A model generated the notes under the pieces. It searched no databases, was not told the origin of the DNA, and saw only the letters and a list, made by a program, of their open reading frames with translations. A stretch of DNA of 64,000 nt from Kofleriaceae bacterium (lineage in GTDB: Bacteria; Myxococcota_A; Polyangia; Haliangiales; Haliangiaceae). Of this stretch, positions 29,812 through 58,060 are shown one piece after another (position 1 is the first letter of the stretch; each line of letters opens with the position of its first letter). The position numbers were made by a program, and so were the translations under genes. Location: positions 224,001 to 288,000 of the forward strand of contig CBDCCZ010000054.1 in NCBI GenBank assembly GCA_965215005.1, written 5' to 3'.

Positions 29812-30892
29812 TTGATGGCGTCGCGTTCCCCGTATCAGGCCCACGAGAAGGGCGCCGAGATCGCCGATGCTCTCGATGCTCTCGACCGGCAGCTCGAGCG
29901 ACTAAGAGCGCTGTACGAGCAGTATTTCATGGGCACGCAGAAGCTCGTGCCAGCGCAACTGCATCGTGAGCTCGAGCGCAAGCTTCGCGAGCTCACGCAA
30001 CTGCAGATCCGCAACACCGCGCTGCGTTTTCGCCTAAACACGCTTACGCAGAAGTTCGGCTCCTACAATACCTACTGGCGTCGGACAATGCGGCAGATCG
30101 AGCAAGGGCGGTATCTGCCGCACATCGCGCGGGTGGCGCGGAAGGCGGGACGGGAGGGTGTGGAGGTTCCCGAGGAAATCCTCGCGGCGATGCCGAAGCG
30201 AATGCGCGAACGGGTGCGACGCGATCGGCAACGGATCGCCGAGCGCGACGATGCCGAGGCTTCCGCTGCGCCGGAGGAGGAGGGGCAGGCGGTGCGCTCG
30301 CCGCAGCAGCGTGCTCATCAGCTCGACGAAAGGCTTCTGGGAGATGACTTTGATCTCGATTCAATGTTCGCGAGCATCACCAGCGAGGCCGAGGCGGTGG
30401 TCGACGCCAGGGAGCCGGGCGGGAGGCAAGAGCCGCCAAAGCCAGCCGCTGTGCGTGAGGTCGGCGCCTCGCTGCCGGTCGCAACGGTAGGCGCGCCGCG
30501 GGCGTCTACCCCGCCTGGACCGCAACCTCCGCGGGCCGCGCCGCCGCCGCGGGGCGTCTACCCCGCCGGGACCGCAACCTCCGCGGGCCGCGTCGCCGCC
30601 TGCGCCGCCGGGACCGCGCCCAACCCCGCCGCCGATTCCACGTGCGCGCCCGCGCAGCGCACCACCGCCGCCACCGGGGATGGACGAGCCGGCAGCCCGT
30701 CAGCTCTATCAGCAATACGTCGAGGCTAGACGAGTTGTCGGCGAGAAAAGCCCCGTTACGTACGAGAAGCTCGTCGACTCGCTCAATCGGCAAGCGCCGC
30801 GCATCATGAAGGAACACAACGCGCGCGGCGTGGACTTCAAGGTTGTCATTAGAGATGCCAAGGTAGTTCTCAAGGCGACACCGAAGCGTTAG
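29812..30892 (+). CDS. MXAN_5187 C-terminal domain family protein (apparent frameshift in the Pro-rich linker near 30552)
   Basis: N-terminal LERLRALYEQYFMG; C-terminal LYQQYVEARR...VDFKVVIRDAKVVLKATPK in the next frame. Confidence 0.8.
30494..30592 (+). repeat. Two tandem ~51-bp Pro-rich coding repeats
   Basis: cgccgcgggcgtctaccccgcc(t/g)ggaccgcaacctccgcgggccgcg occurs twice; the second copy has one extra G. Confidence 0.85.
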
Positions 30893-44344: not shown

Positions 44345-45598
44345 GTGGCGAAGGCAGCGGAGCTCCTGGAGGTCGATGGCCGCGAGGTGCGGATCTCCAG
44401 CCCCACCAAGATCTACTTTCCTGAGCCGGGCTACACCAAGCTCGATGTCGTTCGGTACTATCTGGCGGTCCGCGAAGGCGCCTTGCGGGGGATCTTCGAC
44501 CGCCCTTTCGTCATGCGCCGCTACGTCGACGGTATCGCCGGCGAGGCGTTCTTTCAGAAGCGCGCGCCCAAGTCTCGCCCCGATTGGATCCGCACGGTTG
44601 AGCTGCGCTTTCCATCAGGCCGTACGGCTGACGAAATCGTGGTCACGGAAACCGCGCAGCTGATCTGGCTGGTCAACCTCGGCTGCCTCGACCTCAACCC
44701 GCATGCGGTGCGAACCGCCGACATGGAGCATCCCGACGAGCTTCGCGTCGATCTCGATCCCACGCCGGGAGTCGAGTGGCCGCAGCTCCGCGAGGTTGCG
44801 TTGGTGGTTCGCGAGGTGCTTTCGGAGCATGGCCTGGTGGGATGGCCCAAAACCTCAGGTTCGCGCGGTATTCACGTCTACGCGCGGATTGCGCCGCAGT
44901 GGGGGTTTGACGAGGTCCGGCGTGCTGCGTTGGCCTTGGCGCGCGAGGTCGAGCGACGCGTGCCGGCGCTGGCCACCAGCGCGTGGTGGAAGGAAGAGCG
45001 TCATGGCGTGTTCCTCGACTACAACCAGAACGCCAAGGACCGCACCGTCGCCTCGGCGTATTCGGTGCGTGCCGTGGCCGACGCACGGGTTTCGGCGCCG
45101 CTAACGTGGGACGAGGTGCCAGACTGCGAGCCGGGAGATTTCACCATTACGACCATGCCCGCGCGCTATGGCCGACTGGGCGAGGTCCACGCGGGCATCG
45201 ATGCGCCAGCGGCAGTGGGGTCGCTCGAGCCGCTCTTAGAGCGGTCTCGTCGCCATGAAGCGGAAGGCCTGGGCGATGCGCCGTGGCCTCCGCACTATAA
45301 GAAGCAACGCGGTGAGCCGCGTCGAGTGCAGCCGTCGAAAGCCAAGGGACGGCAGTCGAAGATGCCACTCATCACCGTGGCCAAAGCGGCGAAGAAGGAA
45401 GACGCGCTGGCTGGCCTGGAGCGATGGAAGTCGCGTCACCCCGCCGCTGCCGAACACGTCGCCGTGGAAGACGTGCTCGTGGATGCAATGCGTGGCAGGT
45501 CCTCCACGTGGACGCGCGTGCGGGTAAATTTGCGCCACGTACCCGAGACCGCTCGGCCTGCAGAAGAGCCGCCGGATCCTGACTACGAGCCGTCGTAG
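44345..45598 (+). CDS. LigD-type polymerase/primase (Prim-Pol) domain protein
   Basis: TKLDVVRYY, FFQKRAP, PDELRVDLDP, KTSGSRGIHV, VFLDYNQNAKDRTVASAYSVR. Confidence 0.92.
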   Translation: MAKAAELLEVDGREVRISSPTKIYFPEPGYTKLDVVRYYLAVREGALRGIFDRPFVMRRYVDGIAGEAFFQKRAPKSRPDWIRTVELRFPSGRTADEIVVTETAQLIWLVNLGCLDLNPHAVRTADMEHPDELRVDLDPTPGVEWPQLREVALVVREVLSEHGLVGWPKTSGSRGIHVYARIAPQWGFDEVRRAALALAREVERRVPALATSAWWKEERHGVFLDYNQNAKDRTVASAYSVRAVADARVSAPLTWDEVPDCEPGDFTITTMPARYGRLGEVHAGIDAPAAVGSLEPLLERSRRHEAEGLGDAPWPPHYKKQRGEPRRVQPSKAKGRQSKMPLITVAKAAKKEDALAGLERWKSRHPAAAEHVAVEDVLVDAMRGRSSTWTRVRVNLRHVPETARPAEEPPDPDYEPS

Positions 45599-45743
45599 GC
45601 AGCCGAATATCTGGCTCGCGTCACGCGGCCGCTACCTATTGAAGAGCTTCGCTAAGGCCCTCGGTCGCGCGTTTCCCTCGCTCAAGGATGATACTCTCGG
45701 GTCATTACCAGGCACCGAGAGTGCCTCAATGAGAGAGGGGATC

Positions 45744-46218
45744 ATGAAGCAGATCGTTATCATCGGACTGTTCTTCGCGGCGGTCTCCGCCTTCAGCGCT
45801 AGCGAGGCGGCAGCTCAGACCGGCGTTGGCGTGGGCGTCGACGCGTTTTCTCACCGGACCGGTGGGCCCGAGCGTCACCTATGACGCGGATACGTTTCGG
45901 GTGGGCGGCATGTTCGCCTTCTCGGACGACCCAACGCAGTTCTTCCTCGGCGGTCGCGCGGCGTTCGTCGTGCACGAAGGCGACCGCTCCGACTTCGCCA
46001 TCGGCGCCGGCCTGGGAATTTTCAATCAGGACAATGACCCCGTCGACGATGAAACCAACTTCCATCTCGATGCTTTCGGGCAGCTGCGGGCGTTTCTAAC
46101 CAGCAACGTGGCGTTGAACGCGAGCCTGGGCTTAGCGGTGATCGCAGGCGACGCCGATACAGTCGACATAACCGGCGACCTCGTGGGTATCGCCGGCATT
46201 CACTACTACTTCTATTGA
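45744..46218 (+). CDS. Small outer-membrane beta-barrel protein (apparent frameshift near 45848)
   Basis: Signal peptide MKQIVIIGLFF...AAA; alternating beta-strands; terminal GIHYYFY; extra T in the run at 45846..45849. Confidence 0.75.
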
Positions 46219-46234
46219 CCATCTCTTAGAGTGG

Positions 46235-46266
46235 GAGTGGCTCGCGGCTTACTCCGTGAGCCACTC
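46235..46266. terminator. Intergenic hairpin between convergent genes (REP-like / terminator)
   Basis: GAGTGGCTCGCGG-cttact-CCGTGAGCCACTC. Confidence 0.55.
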
Positions 46267-46323
46267 GCTTCTCGCGGCCGCTTCTCGGGTCTTCCCTCGA
46301 GCTTTACGAGTGTTCACGACCCG

Positions 46324-47406
46324 CTAGGCGCGGAAAATCTGCTGCAACTCGTAAGGCGGGGTGACCTCGAGCTGCGCATAGGTGCACTCGGCGGCGGGCT
46401 TGTCGGGCCGCCAACGCACGAAATGGGCGGTGTGACGAAAGCGATCGCCCTGCATATGGTCGTAGGAGACCTCCACGACGAGCTGTGGACGCAGCGGCAC
46501 CCAGCTCAAGTCTTTGCCGCGGTTCCAGCGGCTGCTGGCGCCTGGCATTCGTTGGCCGGTTTCGTCCGTTTGCGCCCATGAAGCCCACGGGTGATCGGCC
46601 ATGGGGTCTTGCCGGTACGGGGCCAGCTCAACCGTGAGCGCACGCCTCTTGGCTGCGGCGAAACTCGCTGCCACGCCCGCATGGTGCAGAGTTCCGTCTG
46701 CATCGTAAAGACCAAGGAGCAAGGAGCCCACGAGCTCGCCCTCGCCGTCTTTGTGCCAGCGGAATCCAGCGACCACGCAGGCGGCAGTGCGCTGGTGCTT
46801 GACCTTGAGCATCGTGCGCTTGCCAGGCTCGTAGCGCGCATCGTCGGCTTTAGCGATGACACCGTCGAGTCCTGCCCCTTCGAAGCGCTCGAACCAATCG
46901 GTCGCAACTCCGCGGTCGCGCGTTGCTGGGGTTAGGTGAATAGGTGGCCTGGCGGCGTGCAGCGCGTCTTCGAGGAGCCGTCGGCGATCGCGGAACGGCC
47001 GCTGCGACAGATCTTGCTCGCCAAGGCACAACAGATCGAAAGCGACGAACGAGGCAGGTGTTTCTTCGGCGAGTTTTGCCACTCGCGACGCAGCGGGATG
47101 GATGCGCAACAGCAGCGCATCGAAATCGAGGTTGCCCCCGGTCGCGATGACGATCTCACCATCGACCACACAACGAGGCGGAAGATTCCGCAGTAGCGGT
47201 GCCTCGAGCTCGGGGAAATAGCGATTCATCTGCTTGAGATCTCGACTCTGAATGTAAACTTCGTCACCGTCGCGAAACACGATTGCGCGGAAGCCGTCCC
47301 ATTTGGGCTCATAGATCCAGGTGTCGCCTTTGGGCAAGGCGCCAGCGCGCTTCGCGAGCATCGGTTTTACAGGCGGCACGACCGGCGACGACATGCGCAC
47401 CATCAT
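46324..47406 (-). CDS. ligC: ATP-dependent DNA ligase, LigC type
   Basis: PMLAK, YEPKWDGFR, RYFPEL, VDGEIV, AFDLL, GLDGVIAK, KVKHQRTA, VVEVSYDHMQGDRFRH. Confidence 0.92.
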   Translation of the reverse strand: MMVRMSSPVVPPVKPMLAKRAGALPKGDTWIYEPKWDGFRAIVFRDGDEVYIQSRDLKQMNRYFPELEAPLLRNLPPRCVVDGEIVIATGGNLDFDALLLRIHPAASRVAKLAEETPASFVAFDLLCLGEQDLSQRPFRDRRRLLEDALHAARPPIHLTPATRDRGVATDWFERFEGAGLDGVIAKADDARYEPGKRTMLKVKHQRTAACVVAGFRWHKDGEGELVGSLLLGLYDADGTLHHAGVAASFAAAKRRALTVELAPYRQDPMADHPWASWAQTDETGQRMPGASSRWNRGKDLSWVPLRPQLVVEVSYDHMQGDRFRHTAHFVRWRPDKPAAECTYAQLEVTPPYELQQIFRA

Positions 47407-49031: not shown

Positions 49032-50357
49032 CTAGCGGCGCCAGGACGGCGCGCTGTGCAGATCCGGCGTTAGCTTCTGCGCGGCGAGCCACGGCTTGAT
49101 ACGGCGGAACGCCTCTTCGATGGCCTCCATGGAAGCGGCAAAGCTGATGCGAATGGCGTTGGGTGTGCTTTCGCCAAAGGCATCGCCCGGCACGACGCAC
49201 ACGCCGGTTTCCTGCAGCATGCGCATCGCGAGGTGTGAGCCATCGGTGTGCGGCGGCAGCGAGGGAAAGATGTAGAAGCCGCCCTGCGGCCAGTACCCAC
49301 TGAGCTGCGGGCACTCGCTCACGAGCTGCACCACGCGATCCCGGCGCCGCGCGTATTCCGTCGTCATGACGTCGACGCAGGAGCGATCGCCCTCGAGGGC
49401 CGCTACCCCAGCCCATTGGGCGGGCGTGTTAGCGACCGAGGTGGTGAACATGTGCAGTCGGCGAAGCCTGCGAATGGCGCCCATGCTGGAGATAACCCAG
49501 CCAATGCGCAGGCCTGGCATCGCGAAGGTCTTTGAAAAGCTGGATACGATGAAGACGTGATCGAGGTCTGCAGCGTACTGCAGCACGCTTGGGTATTCGA
49601 TTTCGTCGAGGATGAGATGGTCGTAGACCTCATCGCTAAAGACCTTCACGCCGCGATACGCCGCCTCTTGTACGATGGCGTTGATGGTCTCTTTGGGATA
49701 GACGGTGCCGGTCGGATTGCTCGGCGAGTTGAGGATGATTCCCGCGGTGCGCGCGCCAATCTTGTTGATGACCTCTTGTGGGTCGATCTGATGGCCGTGC
49801 TCGGCACGCGTGGATATTAACTTGACCTCACCGCCAAACATGCGAATGAGCGGCGCGTACAGCAAGAACGACGGGTCTGGGACCAAGAACTGCTTGCCCG
49901 GCGTGACCGTGGCGGCCAACGCCAGATACATGGCCTCGGTTGCTCCCGAGGTAATGAGAACGTTGTCCTCGCTGAGCGGTCGCTGATAGCGCTCGCCATA
50001 GTATTTCGCCACTGCAGCGAGGAGGTCGGGCAGCCCTTGGTCCATCGTGTAGGCGGTGCGGCCTTCTTGCAGCGCCTTGATATGCGCCTCGATGATGTGT
50101 GGCGGCGTCGGGAAATCTGGCTGGCCGATGGAGAGGTGGATGACATCTTTCATGCCAGCAGCAACGGTGATCATCCGGCGAATTCCAGACATTGGAATTG
50201 CCTGCAGCGCCGGGCTCCACGTCGATTCGGGTTGAGCGATTTCGCCGTCGCTATCATCAGGTTTGGATGCTTTTACCTGGAGATCTTCGCTATCCGCCGC
50301 GACCTCCGTGATCGAGTCATTCTTCGCTGCTTTGCTGCCGATACCGATCTCCGCCAT
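49032..50357 (-). CDS. PLP-dependent aminotransferase class I/II (aspartate aminotransferase-like)
   Basis: LSIGQPDF, ITSGATEA, NSPSNPTG, SDEVYD, SFSKTFAMPGLRIGW, PGDAFG. Confidence 0.93.
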   Translation of the reverse strand: MAEIGIGSKAAKNDSITEVAADSEDLQVKASKPDDSDGEIAQPESTWSPALQAIPMSGIRRMITVAAGMKDVIHLSIGQPDFPTPPHIIEAHIKALQEGRTAYTMDQGLPDLLAAVAKYYGERYQRPLSEDNVLITSGATEAMYLALAATVTPGKQFLVPDPSFLLYAPLIRMFGGEVKLISTRAEHGHQIDPQEVINKIGARTAGIILNSPSNPTGTVYPKETINAIVQEAAYRGVKVFSDEVYDHLILDEIEYPSVLQYAADLDHVFIVSSFSKTFAMPGLRIGWVISSMGAIRRLRRLHMFTTSVANTPAQWAGVAALEGDRSCVDVMTTEYARRRDRVVQLVSECPQLSGYWPQGGFYIFPSLPPHTDGSHLAMRMLQETGVCVVPGDAFGESTPNAIRISFAASMEAIEEAFRRIKPWLAAQKLTPDLHSAPSWRR

Positions 50358-50455
50358 GCGATCAGACTACGCCGCAGGAGCACGCGGATCAACGTGCGAG
50401 GTTTGACGGCTGCAGCGCGGCCCGATAACGTCACCGTTCGAACGCGAGGTTCTAA

Positions 50456-51458
50456 GTGAGTGCACAAGCGATACATTTGCCGGTGGTGGCGGTACTCGAT
50501 GCCGAGCATGCTCCGCCATGGCCGGGTCTCGAGCCGCTCGCGGAACACGCTGAGGTGGTGCATTGCGCGGATGCCGGTGCGCTCGAGGAGGTCATGCAGC
50601 GCGCTGAGGTGCTGCTCGTTACCGACTTCCGCGCCACCATCAATTAAAACTGCCTGGCCCGATGCGAAGCGACTGTCGTGGGTGCACGCCACGAGCGCCG
50701 GCGTCGACATGTTGATGTTTCCCGAGCTGGTCGCGAGCGCCATTCCCGTGACCAACGCACGCGGCGTTTTCGACCGCACCATCGCGGAATACGTGCTTGG
50801 AATCGTGGCTGCGTTCGCGAAGGACTTTTGGCGAACACGCGCGCTGCAGCAACAGCAGCGTTGGCAGCATCGCGATACCGAACGCATCGCGGGGGCCCGC
50901 ATGCTGGTGGTCGGTGCCGGCTCGATCGGACGCGAGATAGCGCGACTAGCGCGCGCGGTAGGAATGCAGGTGAGCGGCCTGGCTAGACAGGCGCGAGATG
51001 ACGATCCCGTGTTCGGCGAGGTATACGCGGCCGAGGAGCTGGCGCGGGTGCTGCCGCTTGCTGACTACGTCGTGATTGCCGCGCCGCTCACCGAGGCTAC
51101 GCGCCACCTTTTCGATGCGGCTGCGCTTGCTCTCATGAAGCCAACGGCGCGTCTGATCAATATCGGTCGCGGCCCCATCGTCGACACCGATGCGTTGGTG
51201 GCGGCGCTACGCGCAAATCGCCTCGCCGGCGCTGCCCTCGATGTGTTCGAAGAAGAGCCATTGCCGGCAAGCCATCCGCTTTGGGCGATGGAGCAGGTGC
51301 TGATCTCACCGCACATGGCTGGCGACTTTGCCGGCTGGCGCGAGGCGCTCAGCGCGCAATTTATCGCTAATTTTCATCGGTGGCGTGCGGGCCAGCCGCT
51401 CGTCAACCTCGTTGACAAACGCCGCGGCTACGCCGGGCCAGCTAAGGAGAGTGCATGA
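50456..51458 (+). CDS. D-2-hydroxyacid dehydrogenase (apparent frameshift near 50640)
   Basis: SAGVD, TNARGVF, VVGAGSIG, PLTEAT, INIGRG, LDVFEEEPL, ISPHMAG; N-terminus in the preceding frame from GTG 50456. Confidence 0.9.
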
Positions 51459-52886
51459 CTGCCTCGTCTGCCATTGCCGAGCTCACTGCTGCTGAGCTCC
51501 TCGAGCTCTATCAGACCAAGAAGCTATCGCCGGTGGAGGCAGCGAAGGCGTGCCTTGCGCGGGTCCGCGCGCACAACGACGCGGTGAACGCCTACCGCTT
51601 CGTGGACGAGGACACGACGCTGCGACTCGCTAGCGAATCCGAGGCTCGCTACCTTGCCGGCGAGCCGCGCGGCAGTCTCGACGGCGTGCCGGTGGCGGTT
51701 AAAGATGTTTTTCTCATCAAGGGGTGGCCAACGATCAAGGGCTCGCACGCGATCGCCCGCGATCAACCTTGGGATATCGACGCGCCGGCCATCGCCGCGC
51801 TTCGTCGCAACGGGTTTGTTCCCCTGGGCATGACCACCACGCCGGAGTTTGGTTGGAAGGGCGTTACCGACAATCCGGTGGACGGTGTCACTCGCAATCC
51901 GTGGGATCCCAGTAAGACTGCGGGTGGCTCGAGCGGCGGCAGCGCGGCGGCAGTGCCGCTCGGCATGGGGCCTTTGGCGCTCGGCACGGATGCTGGTGGA
52001 TCGATTCGTATACCCGCGGGATTTTGCGGCATCGTTGGCCATAAGCCCACGATGGGCCGAGCGCCGATGTGGCCGCCGAGCGCGTTCGCCCCGCTCGCTC
52101 ACGTGGGTCCGATGACGTGGACGGTGCAAGATGCGGCGCTGCTGCTCGATGTGTTGACCGAGCCTGATTCCCGCGATGCCACTCTGCCTGCCAATCATAG
52201 CCGATTCAAAGATTCACTCGAGGGTGGCATCAAGGGCCTGCGCATCGCGTTCAGCCCCGCGTCTGGGCTACGTGGACATCGTCGAGCCGGAGATCGCTGA
52301 GGCAGTGGCCAGCGCCGCAAGAGTGTTTGAAACGCTAGGGGCGCGTGTCGAGGAAGTCGACCCTGGCTTCTCCGATCCACTCGAGATGTTTGACCGCATG
52401 TTCTATGGCGGCGCCGCAAACGCTCTGCGGGATCTGTCAGACGAACAGAAGTCCAAGATGGATCCGAACTTGGTGTTGGTCGCACGCGAAGCTTCCAAGC
52501 TGACGATGCTCGAGTACCTCGAGGCCAGCAATCTGCGTCTACGGCTGATCGAGCGCATGAGCCTCTTCCATACCCATTACGACTTGTTGCTCACGCCTTC
52601 GCTGCCTATCGTGGCATTCGAGGCCGGGCGCGAGGTGCCTGCCGGCTGGCACAGCCCCCGCTGGCCCACGTGGACGCCATTTACCTATCCATTCAATCTG
52701 ACCGGGCAGCCGGCGTGTTCCGTGCCTTGCGGCTTTACCTCAAACAAACTGCCGATCGGCCTGCAGCTGGTGGGAGCCGCGCACGCCGACGACGTCGTGT
52801 TGCGCGCCGCGCACGCCTATCAGATCACTCGCCCCTTGACGGATCGTCGCCCAACGCTGCACGAAGCGGCGCAAGGAACAACATGA
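51455..52886 (+). CDS. Amidase signature family enzyme (apparent frameshift near 52256)
   Basis: GVPVAVKD, TRNPW, GGSSGGSAAAV, GTDAGGSIRIPA; C-terminal half TYPFNLTGQPACSVP, LPIGLQLVG; extra C in the run at 52255..52258. Confidence 0.92.
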
Positions 52887-54301
52887 ACCAGACCCCGGTG
52901 AAGATAGGTGGCTCGCCAGTGACCAAGGCGCGCACCATCGAGATACGCAATCCGTACAACGACGATGTCGTGGGTATCGTGCCGCAGTGCGACGCTGCCG
53001 ATGTAGACCGCGCGTGTAAAGCGGCGAAAGCGGCACTCGATCGCGATGACTTTCCGCAACATCAACGCGCGGCGGTTCTGGAGCGCGCCGCGGTGCTACT
53101 TCGTAGCCGCATAGAGGAGCTAGCGCGCATCATCATGCGCGAGGGCGGCAAACCGATACGAACCGCGCGCAGCGAGGTCGAACGGTGCGTCGACACTCTC
53201 GTATTCTCGGCGGTCGAAGCGCGCAAGCTCACTGGTGAAATGATCCCAATGGCGGCCAGTGTCTCTGGGGCCGGAAAATTGGCCTTCGCGCTGCGGATTC
53301 CCATTGGGGTCATCGGCGCCATCACGCCATTCAACTTTCCGCTCAACCTCGTGGCCCACAAGCTCGCGCCGGCCATTGCCGCGGGGTGTCCTGTGGTGCT
53401 CAAGCCGGCACCGCAGACGCCCCTGACCGCGCTGGCGCTCGTCGACCTGTTGTTCGAGGCTGGCTTGCCGCAGGACTGGATTTCTACCGTCACCGATGGT
53501 GGCAAAGAGGCAGGCGAGCCGCTGGTCGAGCACGACATCCCCAAGATGATCACGTTTACCGGTAGCGCTCCGGTGGGCTGGATGATCGCCAGTAAAGCCG
53601 CTAAGAAGCGCGTCTCGCTCGAGCTTGGCTCCAACTCGCCGCTCATCGTCGAGCCAGACGGCGACGTCGACACCGTCATCAAGAAGCTCGGAGCTGCGGC
53701 GTTCGGCAACGCCGGCCAGAGCTGCATCTCGGTTCAGCGCCTGTTGGTGCACGAAAGCATTTGCGCGCCGTTCACCGATAAGCTCATCGCCGCGATGCGC
53801 GGCTTGGTCGTTGGCGACCCGGCTGACGAGAAGACCGATGTGGGCCCGATGATTCGTTCACAAGAGAACGAGCGAGTGGCCGCGTGGCTGCAGGAAGCGG
53901 TGCAGGCAGGGGCCAAGGTACTGCTCGGCGGCAAGCCCGAAGGACGCCTATTTCCGCCCACCGTCGTCGCCGATGCGCCCTCCTCATGCAAGCTCTATCG
54001 CAATGAGGTCTTCGGGCCGGTCCTCCTCGTGAACAGCTATCGATCATTCGATCAGGCCATCGAGATGGCCAATGATAGCGACTTTGGCTTACACGCCGGC
54101 GTCTTTACGCGCAACCTGGGCCGTGCGCTGGAGGCGGCTAAGCGGCTCGAGTTTGGCGGCGTGTTGATCAATGAGGTGCCGACCTTTCGCGCCGATCAGC
54201 AGCCGTACGGCGGCGTCGCAGATGCAGGCAACACCCGCGAGGGCCCCGCTTATACAGTTGCCGAAATGACGGAGCTGCGCTTCGTGAGCTTGCAGGCGTG
54301 A
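52883..54301 (+). CDS. NAD(P)-dependent aldehyde dehydrogenase
   Basis: ITPFNFPLNL, LKPAPQTP, FTGS, LELGSN (catalytic Glu), NAGQSCIS (catalytic Cys), EVFGPV. Confidence 0.95.
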   Translation: MNQTPVKIGGSPVTKARTIEIRNPYNDDVVGIVPQCDAADVDRACKAAKAALDRDDFPQHQRAAVLERAAVLLRSRIEELARIIMREGGKPIRTARSEVERCVDTLVFSAVEARKLTGEMIPMAASVSGAGKLAFALRIPIGVIGAITPFNFPLNLVAHKLAPAIAAGCPVVLKPAPQTPLTALALVDLLFEAGLPQDWISTVTDGGKEAGEPLVEHDIPKMITFTGSAPVGWMIASKAAKKRVSLELGSNSPLIVEPDGDVDTVIKKLGAAAFGNAGQSCISVQRLLVHESICAPFTDKLIAAMRGLVVGDPADEKTDVGPMIRSQENERVAAWLQEAVQAGAKVLLGGKPEGRLFPPTVVADAPSSCKLYRNEVFGPVLLVNSYRSFDQAIEMANDSDFGLHAGVFTRNLGRALEAAKRLEFGGVLINEVPTFRADQQPYGGVADAGNTREGPAYTVAEMTELRFVSLQA

Positions 54302-54349
54302 CCGTGCGCGAGCGGACGCCTCGTTTGCGGACGTCCGCTCGGCCCGTGC

Positions 54350-54706
54350 TCAGTATGCTTCGCCCGGGGCGCCGCCATACAGGCCTTCGCCGCAGTACAC
54401 GCTGACCTCGCGAAACTCGACCAGCGGCACCACAAAGAAGGTGAGCGAGTTGATCACGCTGCCGACCACGCTGTTGAGAAAGCTCGTGCGGTCGACGAGC
54501 AACGCCGGCTCACCGTAGCTTGCGCACGCCAAATCGAGGTCGACTTCCTCTGCCTCGATGATTCCGTAGATGAGTGCAATGTGCCAGTGCTCGTCGTAAC
54601 GCTGCGAACGCGCCTGCGGTTGTGCGTTCAGGTGATACACTGTTTTGTAGCAAGCAGTTGACGACAGGATGAGCACTGTCAGAGCAAGAGTGATGCTGGT
54701 CCTCAT
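54350..54706 (-). CDS. Bor/Iss-like lipoprotein
   Basis: STAC lipobox; WHIALIYGI, VDLDLAC, TSFLN, REVSVYC. Confidence 0.7.
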   Translation of the reverse strand: MRTSITLALTVLILSSTACYKTVYHLNAQPQARSQRYDEHWHIALIYGIIEAEEVDLDLACASYGEPALLVDRTSFLNSVVGSVINSLTFFVVPLVEFREVSVYCGEGLYGGAPGEAY

Positions 54707-55047
54707 CGCCCTCGCTCCCCGAAGGTATCCACGGCGCAGGTTACCGTGGTGGTGCGCGGCGCATACAACCCAAGGGTGATGAGCGTCAGGACCGTGTCGA
54801 GCGGCGTCTCGCGCGAGAAGATCTTGGCGACGCCTGGGGCGCCGCAGTCACGGCCCGCCCACACGTGCTCCTCACCAATCAGCCCCCAGAGAAAAAAGTG
54901 CAAGTCGTATTCGATTTGCCGATACGACTGCACTTTGTGAGGTGCGCGATAGGTGAGGCGCGAGCAGCCGAGGAGCCCCCAAGCCATCGCCAGCACGATG
55001 ATGACGGAAGCGAGCTGGCGGCGAGACGAACGAACGGACGAACACAT
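54703..55047 (-). CDS. Bor/Iss-like lipoprotein
   Basis: LLGC lipobox; HFFLWGLIG, DCG, ITLGLYAPRTTTVTC. Confidence 0.8.
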   Translation of the reverse strand: MCSSVRSSRRQLASVIIVLAMAWGLLGCSRLTYRAPHKVQSYRQIEYDLHFFLWGLIGEEHVWAGRDCGAPGVAKIFSRETPLDTVLTLITLGLYAPRTTTVTCAVDTFGERGR

Positions 55048-55185
55048 GGGTTAGCCTCCTCGGCCAGATGACCTTTCGCAGGAGATTCATCGAGCAGCAT
55101 AGACGGCATCACAGGATGCCGTCACCCCCCCTTCTGCTCGTTCGTGACGAACGACGCATGCCGCCCCAACCCGACACGATGTAGG

Positions 55186-56457
55186 TCACGCTGTTGCGTT
55201 TAGCGCCTCTTCGAAGATAGCAACGGCGGTATCGACTTGGTCTTTGGTGACCACCAGCGGCGGCAGCCAGCGCGCGACGTTGCCAAAGGCCCCGCAGCGC
55301 AACATGAGAAGTCCGCGCCGCTCGACCTCCTCTAGTAGCTTTGCGGTGCGGTCGCCATCGGGTTTACCGCTCGCATCGACCATCCAAGTGCCGAGCATCA
55401 AGCCCTTGCCGCGGATGTGGCCGATGGCGCCGTGCTGCTTCTGCAGCTCGATGAGCCGCGCACGCAGATGCGCCCCCATCCGCTCGGCGTTCTCCACCAG
55501 CTTCTCCTCGCGGATGACGCGAAGCGTGGCTACCGCCGCCGCGGAGGCCACTGCGTTGCCACCGTAGGTGCCGCCCTGCGAGCCCATCCAACCCTTAGCC
55601 ATCAGCTCTTCACGCGCGCCGAATGCCGACAATGGAAAGCCGCTCGCGAGTCCCTTGGCGGTGATGACAATGTCCGGTTGGGCATCGAAGTGCTCGTGTC
55701 CCCAGAACTTGCCGGTCCGGCCGTAGCCGGCTTGGACCTCATCGAGAACCAGCAGAATACCGTGCTCGTCGCAGCGCTCGCGCAGGCCAGCCAGGAAGGC
55801 GGCATTGGCGGGCGTGTAGCCGCCCTCGCCTTGAATGGGCTCGATGAAGAATGCCGCTGTCTCGTTGGGAGCGCAGTAGGTCATAAAGATGCGATCGAGC
55901 TCGCGCAGACAGAACTCGGTCGTGGTTGCTTCATCCCAACCGTAGTGAAATGGATCGGGGAACGGCGCCACGATCACGCCACCCATTAGCGGCTGCAAGC
56001 CGGCGCGCAGCTTTACGCTCGAGGTCGTCATCGACAATGCGCCGACGGTACGGCCGTGAAACGAGCCGTGGAACACGATGAGGTTCGGCCTTCCGGTCGC
56101 GTGTCGACAAAGTCGCATGGCGGCCTCTACAGCCTCGGTTCCGGCGCTGGCGAAGAAGAACCGGTCGATGGGGCTCGGCATCACCTCCGCGAGCCCCGCG
56201 CTCAGCTCCTTGAGCTTGGGATGCATGACAGTGGTGTATTGCCCATGGATCAAGTTGCCGGCTTGCTCGCGCGCGGCCGCGACGACCGCCGGATGGCAGT
56301 GGCCGGTGCTGGTCACGCCGATACCCGACGTAAAGTCCAGATAGCGCTTGTCCTCAGGGTCAAAAAGATAACAACCCTCGCCGCGCACCGCCGTGACTCG
56401 ACTCGATTGTTTGAGCAGCGGCGAAAGTTGTCCATCTCGTGTCGATGCAGTTCCCAT
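55186..56457 (-). CDS. Class III PLP aminotransferase (4-aminobutyrate/diaminobutyrate aminotransferase-like)
   Basis: YLDFTSGIG, GTEAVE, SFHGRT, EPIQGEGG, DEVQAGYGRTG, AKGLASG, GGTYGGN. Confidence 0.93.
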   Translation of the reverse strand: MGTASTRDGQLSPLLKQSSRVTAVRGEGCYLFDPEDKRYLDFTSGIGVTSTGHCHPAVVAAAREQAGNLIHGQYTTVMHPKLKELSAGLAEVMPSPIDRFFFASAGTEAVEAAMRLCRHATGRPNLIVFHGSFHGRTVGALSMTTSSVKLRAGLQPLMGGVIVAPFPDPFHYGWDEATTTEFCLRELDRIFMTYCAPNETAAFFIEPIQGEGGYTPANAAFLAGLRERCDEHGILLVLDEVQAGYGRTGKFWGHEHFDAQPDIVITAKGLASGFPLSAFGAREELMAKGWMGSQGGTYGGNAVASAAAVATLRVIREEKLVENAERMGAHLRARLIELQKQHGAIGHIRGKGLMLGTWMVDASGKPDGDRTAKLLEEVERRGLLMLRCGAFGNVARWLPPLVVTKDQVDTAVAIFEEALNATA

Positions 56458-56488
56458 GCAACGAGCATCCCTCGCTGCCGAGTCTCGA

Positions 56489-57658
56489 TCAACCCGAGCG
56501 GTGCAGCGCTCCGAGAATCGACTCAGCGATCGCTGCGGTGGTGCGCCGCGCCTGGCCATGCTGGCGCAGGTCCTCTGCGACGGCTGCATGGAGGCGGCGG
56601 GCGGCGCTGGCTGCCCGAGGATCTTCTTGCCCCATCCAATCGAGCATCATGGCAGTGGTTAGTAGCATCGCTCGGGGATCGGCGATGTCCTGACCGACGA
56701 TATCCGGCGCGCTGCCGTGAGTCGGCTCGAACATGGGTGGCCGCGAGCGGTCGGATGGATTGATGTTGCAGGATGGCGCAACGCCCATGCCTCCACACAA
56801 AACCGCCGCGAGGTCCGTGAGAATGTCACCTTGCAAGTTGCTTGCAACGACGACGTCGAACATCCATGGGCTGGCGACGAACTTCATGCACGCTGCATCG
56901 ACCAACTCATGATGAGTGGCGATATCTGGATAGTTCTTGGCAACCTCGGCAAAGACCTCAGTCCACATCTGGCCCCAGTAGGCAAGGGCGTTTCGCTTGG
57001 TCACAAGACACACTTGTGCTGCCGCATCGCTGCCAGCGGCGGTGCGGAACTGGCGTGGGCGTCGTGCTCCGGCCGCACGCTCTGCGGCACGCTGTCGGGC
57101 ACGCTCGAAGGCGTGAGTAAAAATTCGCTCGGCGCCGCGGCGCGTAAACACTTCCACCTGCGTGGCGAGCTCAGCAGGGCTGCCTACGCCCACGCGACCG
57201 CCCTGGCCGATGTATTCGCCTTCGCTGTTTTCGCGAATCACCAGTAAGTCGAGCTCGCCGGCGCGTGGATCGGCGAGATATTGCCGCGCGCCTTCGATGG
57301 TGATAGCCGGACGCTCGCATGCCCATAAGTCGAACCCCTGGCGAATCTCGAGCAGCGGCGCCAGCGAAACACCATCTGTCAACCGAAAGCGGTCGGTGGC
57401 GGTGAGCGGCCCGGGATCGCCGAGGGCGCCCAGCAGCAGCGCATCGTACTGCGCCAGCTGCGCTTTCCAGTCGCCGGGCATGCCCGCGCCGTTCTCGGCA
57501 TAGTATGCGGTGGACGGCCACGCGAGCTCAGTGAGCTGCAAGCGCAGCTCGCCGAGCGCCGCGAGCGCGTCCGCGGCAACGCGCATCACCTCGGGACCGA
57601 TGCCATCTCCCGGCGCGAGCGCGATCTTCCATTGGCTACGTGCGGCGCTCTCGACCAT
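56489..57658 (-). CDS. Isocitrate/isopropylmalate/tartrate dehydrogenase family enzyme (tartrate dehydrogenase-like)
   Basis: GDGIGPEV, IRENSEGEY, VTKRNA, VDAACMKFV..P..FDVVVASNLQGDILTDL, FEPTHGSAPDI. Confidence 0.9.
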   Translation of the reverse strand: MVESAARSQWKIALAPGDGIGPEVMRVAADALAALGELRLQLTELAWPSTAYYAENGAGMPGDWKAQLAQYDALLLGALGDPGPLTATDRFRLTDGVSLAPLLEIRQGFDLWACERPAITIEGARQYLADPRAGELDLLVIRENSEGEYIGQGGRVGVGSPAELATQVEVFTRRGAERIFTHAFERARQRAAERAAGARRPRQFRTAAGSDAAAQVCLVTKRNALAYWGQMWTEVFAEVAKNYPDIATHHELVDAACMKFVASPWMFDVVVASNLQGDILTDLAAVLCGGMGVAPSCNINPSDRSRPPMFEPTHGSAPDIVGQDIADPRAMLLTTAMMLDWMGQEDPRAASAARRLHAAVAEDLRQHGQARRTTAAIAESILGALHRSG

Positions 57659-57661
57659 GAC

Positions 57662-58060
57662 TCAGTCTTTGATTTCTTCGGCGGCGAGCTCGTACGAGCC
57701 GTCTTTGTTGTGTACTTCGGTGCCGTGTAACGCTGGACTGAACACGCACGCGAGCTCGAGCTCGCTATGAGCGCGCAGCACGTGCTTGTCGTGCTTGTCG
57801 AGCGCATAGATCATACCCGGCGAAATCGGGTGCTTTTCCCCCGTTCGCAGGTCTTCGATCTCGCCCTCGCCCTGGATGCAGTACACCGACTCCAGGTGGT
57901 TTTGGTACCAGAGCTGGAGCTCGGCGCCGCGATAGATGGTGGTGATGTGAAACGAGAAGTTCATCTCGTCGTTCTTGAGAAGGAGTCGCACTGACTCGAA
58001 TCCCTCGGAGGAGATACGGCGTTTGCTTTTCCTGGCTTCTTGAAGACGTCTTACGATCAC
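57662..58060 (-). CDS. ectC: L-ectoine synthase (solitary; no ectA in window)
   Basis: MIVRRL...[71 protein letters not shown] start with GGAG RBS. Confidence 0.95.

Follow-up and report, generated by a model that had tools for sequence, protein, structure and literature searches.

A recurrent six-gene module, joined to ectC in one Kofleriaceae genome, is likely a variant of ectoine catabolism

In a 64,000-nucleotide stretch of a Kofleriaceae genome (the window), we found six enzyme genes beside a gene for ectoine synthase (ectC), and these six, ectC apart, are grouped together far more than chance would allow. Our analysis suggests that the module they form is likely a variant of ectoine catabolism that is not built around EctC. 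As a tentative reading of the sequences, which falls a little short of an even chance, the six enzymes would degrade N-gamma-acetyl-L-2,4-diaminobutyrate (N-gamma-acetyl-DABA) to pyruvate via D-malate. An earlier sequence-only reading of this DNA had described seven enzyme genes and their spacing, and when we rechecked coordinates, strands, overlaps and gaps, we found these to be real (Table 1): ATGA overlaps join HADH to the amidase at 51455 and the amidase to ALDH at 52883 on the plus strand, and on the minus strand ectC is 3 bp upstream of TDH, which is 31 bp from the AT3 ATG at 56457. Its statement that ectA and eutD are absent from the window also holds, and a domain and family profile search of the locus found no EutE/DoeB deacetylase among its genes. 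It had overlooked two frameshifts, two lipoprotein-like genes and the ect genes elsewhere in the genome. The lipoprotein-like genes have no matches in the related loci that we compared, and a promoter and terminator scan of the locus stayed at chance level.

Table 1. Features of the locus, with positions in the window and the predicted step in the proposed route.
Feature	Position	Strand	Remarks	Predicted step
Class I aminotransferase (AT1)	49032..50357	-	PF00155; no NCBIfam cut-off passed	1
D-2-hydroxyacid dehydrogenase (HADH)	50456..51458	+	PF02826; frameshifted, two frames	2
Amidase-signature amidase, PRK06169 type	51455..52886	+	Two PF01425 pieces; frameshifted	3 (deacetylation)
Aldehyde dehydrogenase (ALDH)	52883..54301	+		5
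Two small lipoprotein-like genes, one Pfam Bor	54350..55047	-	Passengers between the two blocks	
Class III, GABA-transaminase-like aminotransferase (AT3)	55186..56457	-	Best structures PuuE/GabT	4
Divergent tartrate/D-malate dehydrogenase-like beta-decarboxylating dehydrogenase (TDH)	56489..57658	-	Best structure P. putida tartrate dehydrogenase 3flk	6
Ectoine synthase EctC, canonical type	57662..58060	-	NF009806 over cut-off; local addition	

We compared 47 related gammaproteobacterial loci, chosen on TDH, and found all six non-ectC genes together in 22 of them and a best-kept core of TDH, HADH and AT1 in 37; three loci (L085, L091 and L094) repeat the exact layout of the window. Fifteen of the 47 keep the core without the amidase. 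We found no amidase orthologue in 8 of 10 genomes with such amidase-less loci, and of 5 such genomes searched for AT3, 4 gave no orthologue; the missing steps there would fall to housekeeping enzymes. The gammaproteobacterial loci contain neither a ring-opening hydrolase nor an ectoine transporter. AT1 of the window matches its module orthologues at 58–74%; the window ALDH matches the SSADH-type gene of the gammaproteobacterial modules at 32–36% and the ALDH from L199, an actinobacterial cluster linked to ehu, at 65%. None of 129 genomes from the window's own phylum has the module marker gene, and none of 40 relatives has an AT3 orthologue. A salt-adapted gammaproteobacterium is the likely source of the module; the trees that we drew for AT3 and ALDH have no support values. 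On plasmids, TDH has no match and AT3 has matches at 43–59%, two of which we inspected: in Shinella, the locus includes an ALDH as well as an amino-acid ABC transporter; the Bacillus cluster is unrelated.

The predicted substrate, N-gamma-acetyl-DABA, is what EctC acts on and also arises when the ectoine ring is opened. It is not a substrate of DoeB, and its fate was left unexplained (PMC5924519). AT1 would transaminate it at the alpha position to 4-acetamido-2-oxobutyrate, which HADH would reduce to the (R)-2-hydroxy acid. Acetate would then be split off by the amidase to leave (R)-4-amino-2-hydroxybutyrate, from which the GABA-transaminase-like AT3 would form D-malate semialdehyde; ALDH would convert this to D-malate, and TDH would yield pyruvate and CO2. 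Each of the six enzymes would be used once, and a 3-hydroxy substrate derived from hydroxyectoine could pass through the same enzymes and end at tartrate and glycerate.

We favour this order because of active-site motifs and gene-loss patterns, namely the GABA-type Arg of AT3, the SSADH-type ALDHs, an AT1 without the Lys of aspartate aminotransferases, and module carriers without ectD (11 of 29). A T-x-GATEA motif is found in 36 of 37 AT1 orthologues, at a site where the two aspartate aminotransferase structures that we aligned have Lys. In AT3, 58 of 59 family members have FHGRT; the Arg motif of this type occurs in ornithine transaminases too. In contrast, the four EctB proteins that match the motif have FHGMT, and the residue at the AT3 Arg position is Met in EctB (PMC6915088). 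AT3 scores 353 bits against the GABA transaminase family TIGR00700, below its cut-off of 507. Two loci, L093 and L109, have module ALDHs that score over the SSADH cut-off, the amidase has the K/GGSSGGS/GGSIR motifs, and an intact amidase orthologue passes the NF004815 cut-off. TDH scores 306 bits against TIGR02089, below the cut-off of 470, and R106, R116, R142, Y149, K221, D254, D278, D282 and E311 are invariant in 44 orthologues; by alignment to 3flk, we take the Arg, Tyr, Lys and Asp residues to have 2-hydroxy-dicarboxylate and metal roles. Two enzyme types occupy the TDH position, this divergent one and, in Actinobacteria, a true TtuC that passes the TIGR02089 cut-off at 520 bits; because of this and the invariant malate-binding residues, we place the predicted end of the route at D-malate and pyruvate.

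Among the 29 genomes that carry the marker gene, 28 have ectA, 28 have ectC and none has doeA over the cut-off. In one 301-genome sample of an order, ectA was present in 19 of 20 carriers as compared to 112 of 281 non-carriers. Carriers and doeA overlapped in 0 genomes as compared to 2.2 expected (P ~0.08), which is a weak exclusion, and the ectA link is possibly one of habitat because the carriers are kin that share saline habitats. Of the 11 carriers without ectD, 7 hold all six genes. In Actinobacteria, relatives of HADH, the amidase, AT3 and ALDH adjoin ehuBCDA, those of three of the module genes lie next to true EhuB genes, and all seven EhuB-like proteins scanned beside such relatives pass the EhuB cut-off. 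The actinobacterial versions also carry EutA-like genes, and some of the clusters have a ProP-like carrier in place of Ehu. A class I aminotransferase was found in 1 of 26 and 1 of 17 actinobacterial clusters, both distant, and TDH in 0 of 26 and 5 of 17, so these clusters cannot follow the proposed order exactly. Of the 26 HADH loci from Actinobacteria, about 8 (L200, L201, L205, L207, L211, L214–L217 type) are without another module gene and seem to belong to a different context; our counts include them. In the Kofleriaceae genome itself, the best match to the EutD/DoeA M24 hydrolase reaches 31.9 bits against a cut-off of 613, and no EhuB is over its cut-off. Taken together, these data support by genomic context the sequence-only proposal of an undescribed doeA-independent route tied to ectoine, through ectA, the absence of doeA and the ehu adjacency, and go against its EctC-centred form, as none of the 47 gammaproteobacterial loci has ectC beside the module. 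The suggestion that a predator scavenges prey osmolytes finds no support, with no EhuB over the cut-off in the genome.

The strongest alternative, which we still consider unlikely, is that the module degrades or makes some other small C4 compound of saline habitats and that the ectoine links reflect habitat and coincidence. Examples are an asparagine-like amide, passing via 2-hydroxysuccinamate to D-malate, or another osmolyte. Such a role would fit the absence of any ect gene beside the gammaproteobacterial modules, the 15 loci in which the three-gene core stands alone, and the actinobacterial transporters, since EhuB-type systems may carry other solutes and a ProP-like carrier can take their place. 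However, three separate links indicate ectoine: carriers tend to have ectA, ehu and EutA-like genes adjoin the actinobacterial versions, and in the window ectC is coupled to the module at 3 bp. The amide route would give AT3 and ALDH no role.

HADH has a +1 frameshift near 50642 and the amidase has one in a C run near 52258. Both are likely assembly errors, and with two frameshifted genes this copy of the module may be dead. That the acquired block is decaying in this genome, with two true frameshifts and no function, seems to us rather improbable; such decay would concern this copy only and not the module at large. It is consistent with two frameshifts falling within 1.6 kb, and with a genome-wide frameshift test of 90 loci in which the window's amidase was the one true case (a second flagged row was a shadow ORF). 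However, another +1 shift, near 45870, lies in an unrelated gene, HADH retains 110 of 117 conserved columns (94%) and the amidase 203 of 222 (91%), and both match intact genes in GC3 and have no further stops. The stretch was found in one sequencing run, as contigs, with no RNA run listed for it. Pieces begin at 50643 and 52261; among the 21 pieces listed, with 210 more beyond the list, none bridges either frameshift, at a depth of about 2 that is too low to tell an error from a true break.

EctC had been taken to be solitary and the centre of the cluster. A profile search of the genome found ectA and two ectB over the cut-off: ask and a fused ectA-ectB lie about 175 kb from the locus on the same contig, and there is a second ask-ectB, with a MarR gene, as well as a second ectC, so that EctC is not solitary; ectA and a true ectB elsewhere were among the outcomes that the sequence-only reading had itself named as refuting. 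ectD was not found in this genome. The window ectC lies outside any ect gene cluster. We checked the Fe ligands (Glu57, Tyr84/85 and His92/93) and substrate residues, and EctC retains E57, Y85, H93, S23, R25, T40, Y52 and F107, with F and H at positions 21 and 38. Its top 119 relatives match at 65–76%, and the named ones are marine Gammaproteobacteria. The ectC neighbourhoods of relatives (11 loci) contain canonical ect operons or unrelated genes, with one 32% HADH as the only module-like gene, and EctC has no match in further sets of 17 and 26 loci. The 47 loci rule out ectC as part of a conserved unit, and an extra ectC copy gave no clear signal as a mark of carriers (two copies in 3 of 29 carriers as compared to 1 of 40 other ectA genomes). 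The window ectC is likely an ordinary synthase that completes the split ask-ectAB pathway and has become coupled to the module in this lineage.

It is possible that EctC runs backwards, and the one support for this is the single 3-bp gene coupling. In a wider scheme, which we regard as distinctly unlikely, ectoine producers without doeA would recycle their own ectoine by reversed EctC, with AT1 removing N-gamma-acetyl-DABA and the irreversible decarboxylation of D-malate driving flux, and Actinobacteria would supply this lower route with ectoine imported by Ehu, via DUF3830 and two EutA-like proteins. Under that scheme, the second ectC joined to the operon in this genome would show the link.

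In the sequence-only reading, the acetyl group was removed first to give DABA, the class III enzyme then formed aspartate semialdehyde, this was oxidised to aspartate, and the class I enzyme made oxaloacetate; TDH and HADH served the hydroxyectoine branch only. This order is very doubtful. It shares the same ectoine context (ectA, doeA absence, ehu adjacency), it parallels Doe chemistry, EctB and GABA aminotransferases are close and cross-reacting, and ectD is present in 18 of the 29 carriers. However, AT3 has Arg and not Met, AT1 lacks the Lys of aspartate aminotransferases, the amidase is often absent while TDH and HADH are best kept, and ectD is missing from this genome as well as from the other 11 carriers. 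Furthermore, DABA and aspartate semialdehyde would probably re-enter EctAB. The two orders have different stable intermediates and are hence distinguishable. Least probable of all is that the module only drains off N-gamma-acetyl-DABA or DABA made in excess by biosynthesis, without ring opening and with a purely biosynthetic ectC: the lack of a hydrolase and transporter in gammaproteobacterial loci, the reportedly minimal back reaction of EctC and the known separation of some ectC genes from ectAB agree with it, but the actinobacterial versions sit with uptake systems, implying an external solute. The chemistry of such a drain would be that of our preferred order, and only the substrate source would differ.

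Ectoine is one of the major osmolytes of sea and soil, and it is also produced industrially. Our literature search found no description of this gene set and nothing on DUF3830, and EutD/DoeA was the only ectoine breakdown route that it met. A second breakdown route, if true, would explain what becomes of N-gamma-acetyl-DABA, provide a role for the actinobacterial ehuBCDA clusters that adjoin uncharacterised enzymes, give functions to DUF3830 and to several enzyme subfamilies without a name, and offer knockout targets in ectoine producers without doeA. The scheme with reversed EctC, if true, would mean that ectoine is broken down by a second pathway that is widespread, and that ectoine synthase works in reverse under physiological conditions.

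Among known systems, the EutD-based Gram-positive clusters resemble the module as putative non-classical ectoine catabolism with an aminotransferase, an aldehyde dehydrogenase, an amidohydrolase and transporters (PMC13188858); they were found via EutD/EutB, whereas the module needs no EutD, and the word 'amidase' is absent from the main text of that paper. Like the solitary ectC genes (PMC5924519), the window ectC lies outside an ect operon; unlike them, it is in a genome with ectA and ectB, is nearest to marine Gammaproteobacteria and is coupled to a catabolic-looking operon. TDH belongs to the fold family of TtuC and DmlA (PDB 3flk) and has every malate- and metal-binding residue that we checked, but it forms a separate subfamily below TIGR02089, has an insert of ~20 residues and has no tartrate transporter alongside. 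The GABA shunt (GabT/PuuE and GabD) is similar in that AT3 is nearest to GABA transaminases and many module ALDHs are of the SSADH type; in contrast, the module would act on a 2-hydroxy substrate and continue with a D-malate dehydrogenase, and GABA aminotransferase family cut-offs are not reached. With Eut/Doe (eutABCDE-ssd-atf; doeABCD), the module would share deacetylation, omega-transamination and semialdehyde oxidation of the acetyl-DABA skeleton. As candidates for the Atf/DoeD and Ssd/DoeC roles, the locus has a class III aminotransferase, GABA-type by structure match and motif, and an ALDH, and the actinobacterial versions share ehuBCDA and EutA-like genes. In contrast to Eut/Doe, the module has no M24 hydrolase, an amidase-signature enzyme replaces EutE/DoeB, and the N-gamma isomer would be taken to D-malate and pyruvate, whereas Eut/Doe takes the N-alpha isomer to aspartate.

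In the window, we confirmed the seven enzyme genes of the sequence-only reading at their positions, together with the 3-bp gap, the 31-bp gap and the ATGA overlaps; two small lipoprotein-like genes stand between the two gene blocks. We then selected 47 loci on the tartrate-dehydrogenase-like protein (TDH), namely 28 genome regions and 19 of 80 metagenome loci at 58% identity or more; 38 of the 47 are 15 kb or longer. The complete set of six enzymes without ectC was found in 22 of these loci, TDH, D-2-hydroxyacid dehydrogenase (HADH) and class I aminotransferase (AT) together in 37, and the window's exact layout in L085, L091 and L094. No ectC was found in any of the 47, so a cluster built around EctC, as the sequence-only reading had it, is not borne out; the real unit is six genes, and ectC is not part of it. 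The closest TDH relatives are 62–71% identical, and those named come from halophilic or marine Gammaproteobacteria (Alkalilimnicola, Arhodomonas, Nitrococcus, Salinisphaera). A search of 129 other genomes in the same phylum gave no TDH marker, and none of 40 relatives yielded a class III AT orthologue; horizontal acquisition of the block is therefore likely. Two protein matches labelled Polyangiales MAG, P0085 (TDH) and P0273 (window-type aldehyde dehydrogenase, ALDH), lie on contigs of equal length (2971) and may be neighbours; if so, they are a possible second occurrence outside Gammaproteobacteria.

In this assembly (G000), the reading frames of HADH and amidase shift at about 50642 and about 52258. 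Conserved columns are retained despite the shifts (94% in HADH, 91% in amidase), GC3 is normal in both, and a gene unrelated to the module is similarly shifted by +1 at about 45870, which favours local sequence error. True breaks are the alternative; frameshifts are rare elsewhere in G000 (one true case in 90 testable loci, the window amidase itself), which argues against sequence error.

Coordinates of ectoine genes and other features (L, loci examined; C, contigs of G000)
Feature	Location	Strand	Remarks
ectA-ectB fusion	L003:8929-10752 = G000:C54, about 104.9-106.7 kb	-	Single 607-aa open frame behind aspartokinase, without ectC
Second ask-ectB pair	L004:7901-11295 = G000:C24		Without ectA or ectC; divergent from MarR gene
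Second ectC	L005:8623-9003 = G000:C3		48% to window ectC
Lone ectA copy	L242:4093-6014		Convergent with amidase 45% identical to module amidase
Variant cluster around same class III AT	L008:10-12666; L202		Distant DoeA-like M24 protein, M20 deacylase, class I AT; ProP-like carrier in L008
Proline-rich gene	window 29815-30892		Two overlapping frames, possible further frameshift
LigD primase-polymerase-like and LigC-type ATP-dependent ligase-like genes	window 44345-47406		Recognised by eye
Signal-peptide protein, probably outer-membrane	window 45746-46218		+1 frameshift in a T run at about 45870

Within the genome the window ectC is not solitary, contrary to the earlier claim: G000 carries ask with ectA and ectB fused in frame on the window's contig, as well as another ask-ectB pair and a second ectC. 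The genome-wide check thus found ectA and ectB; the lack of eutD stood, with no eutD, EhuB or ectD over cut-off in this 92.8% complete assembly. Five unrelated genomes (L237–L241) likewise have ectA and ectB in frame, and in them ectB appears to retain its own Met, unlike the ectB part of the G000 fusion. The second ectC is flanked by an arylamine N-acetyltransferase-like gene and an acyl-CoA dehydrogenase/AMP-ligase/carrier-protein operon. Window EctC is 65–76% identical to its top relatives (those named are marine Gammaproteobacteria) and retains the iron ligands named in excerpts of PMC6344544; a location of ectC away from ectAB has precedent (PMC3187862, excerpt). In relatives of G000 (L063, L064, L069), ectABC, ectD, ask and ehuBCDA all lie in one cluster; in L069 a distant DoeA-like gene is present too, as is a threonine-aldolase-like gene.

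Using each family's usual chemistry, we tentatively propose, at slightly under even confidence, a single chain in which each of the six enzymes acts once. Class I AT would convert N-gamma-acetyl-diaminobutyrate (N-gamma-ADABA) to the 2-oxo acid, HADH would reduce this to the (R)-2-hydroxy acid, amidase would release 4-amino-2-hydroxybutyrate, class III AT would give D-malate semialdehyde, ALDH D-malate, and TDH pyruvate. Several observations favour this chain. At the position of a Lys in two aspartate ATs, class I AT carries GATEA, which speaks for the chain given the role of that Lys. The TDH slot holds true TtuC in some Actinobacteria and the divergent window type elsewhere, and the malate-binding residues of TDH are invariant in 44 orthologues. 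Two module ALDHs exceed the SSADH cut-off. The nearest enzymes to class III AT are GABA transaminases; 58 of 59 members of the class III AT family carry a GABA-type Arg, at a position that is Met in EctB (PMC6915088, excerpt). Seven genomes carrying all six genes lack ectD, which also favours the chain and makes TDH and HADH hardly a hydroxyectoine extra, the role first suggested for them. Against the chain, 15 TDH-selected loci have the TDH, HADH and class I AT core without amidase, and of such genomes, 8 of 10 gave no amidase orthologue and 4 of 5 no orthologue of class III AT. Excerpts of PMC5924519 describe N-gamma-ADABA as no DoeB substrate and its fate as unclear.

In Actinobacteria, relatives of HADH, amidase and class III AT (51–62%) cluster with ALDH, GntR, DUF3830 and two EutA-like proteins; class I AT is mostly absent and TDH often absent, which also counts against the chain. 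Across 26 HADH loci in 25 of 301 sampled genomes, centred on the genome of L012, EhuB (33–42%) lies beside HADH in eight (all seven scanned exceed the EhuB cut-off), and others have a ProP-like carrier. In the ehu-linked cluster L199, ALDH is 65% identical to that of the window. The DUF3830 gene and two EutA-like (arylmalonate decarboxylase family) genes accompany amidase and HADH in L012, L198, L199, L208 and L213, often adjoining ehuBCDA, and may encode a new reaction that opens the ectoine ring; the single structure for DUF3830 is the uncharacterised 3kop, and the family gave no match in the open literature searched.

Among 29 TDH-marker genomes, ectA and ectC are each present in 28, ectD in 18 (17 over cut-off) and doeA over cut-off in none. 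In 301 sampled genomes of one order, ectA is present in 19 of 20 carriers vs 112 of 281 non-carriers, although kin are not independent and the nominal P overstates the association, which shared habitat could also produce. None of 17 doeA genomes is a carrier, with an expected overlap of only 2.2 (P about 0.08). Against the proposed route, the gammaproteobacterial module loci examined have no hydrolase or ectoine transporter. EctC in reverse is a possible ring opener, on the basis of a single coupling at 3 bp, the presence of a spare ectC in G000 and the lack of another ring opener; excerpts of PMC6344544 place the equilibrium almost fully on the ectoine side with minimal back reaction, and those of PMC5924519 report no reverse activity.

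Taken together, these data indicate that the six-enzyme module is real and widespread. It is apparently undescribed so far: the open literature searched does not describe the gene set (prior description is possible in subscription papers and supplements, outside that search), the 2026 survey PMC13188858 covers only EutD-based clusters in its excerpts, and excerpts of PMC4795551, PMC10454040 and PMC9309667 hold nothing decisive for the module. What stands of the ectoine catabolic cluster first proposed is thus a module, not built around EctC, that is probably tied to ectoine or acetyl-diaminobutyrate turnover and falls outside the Eut/Doe family of ectoine catabolism.
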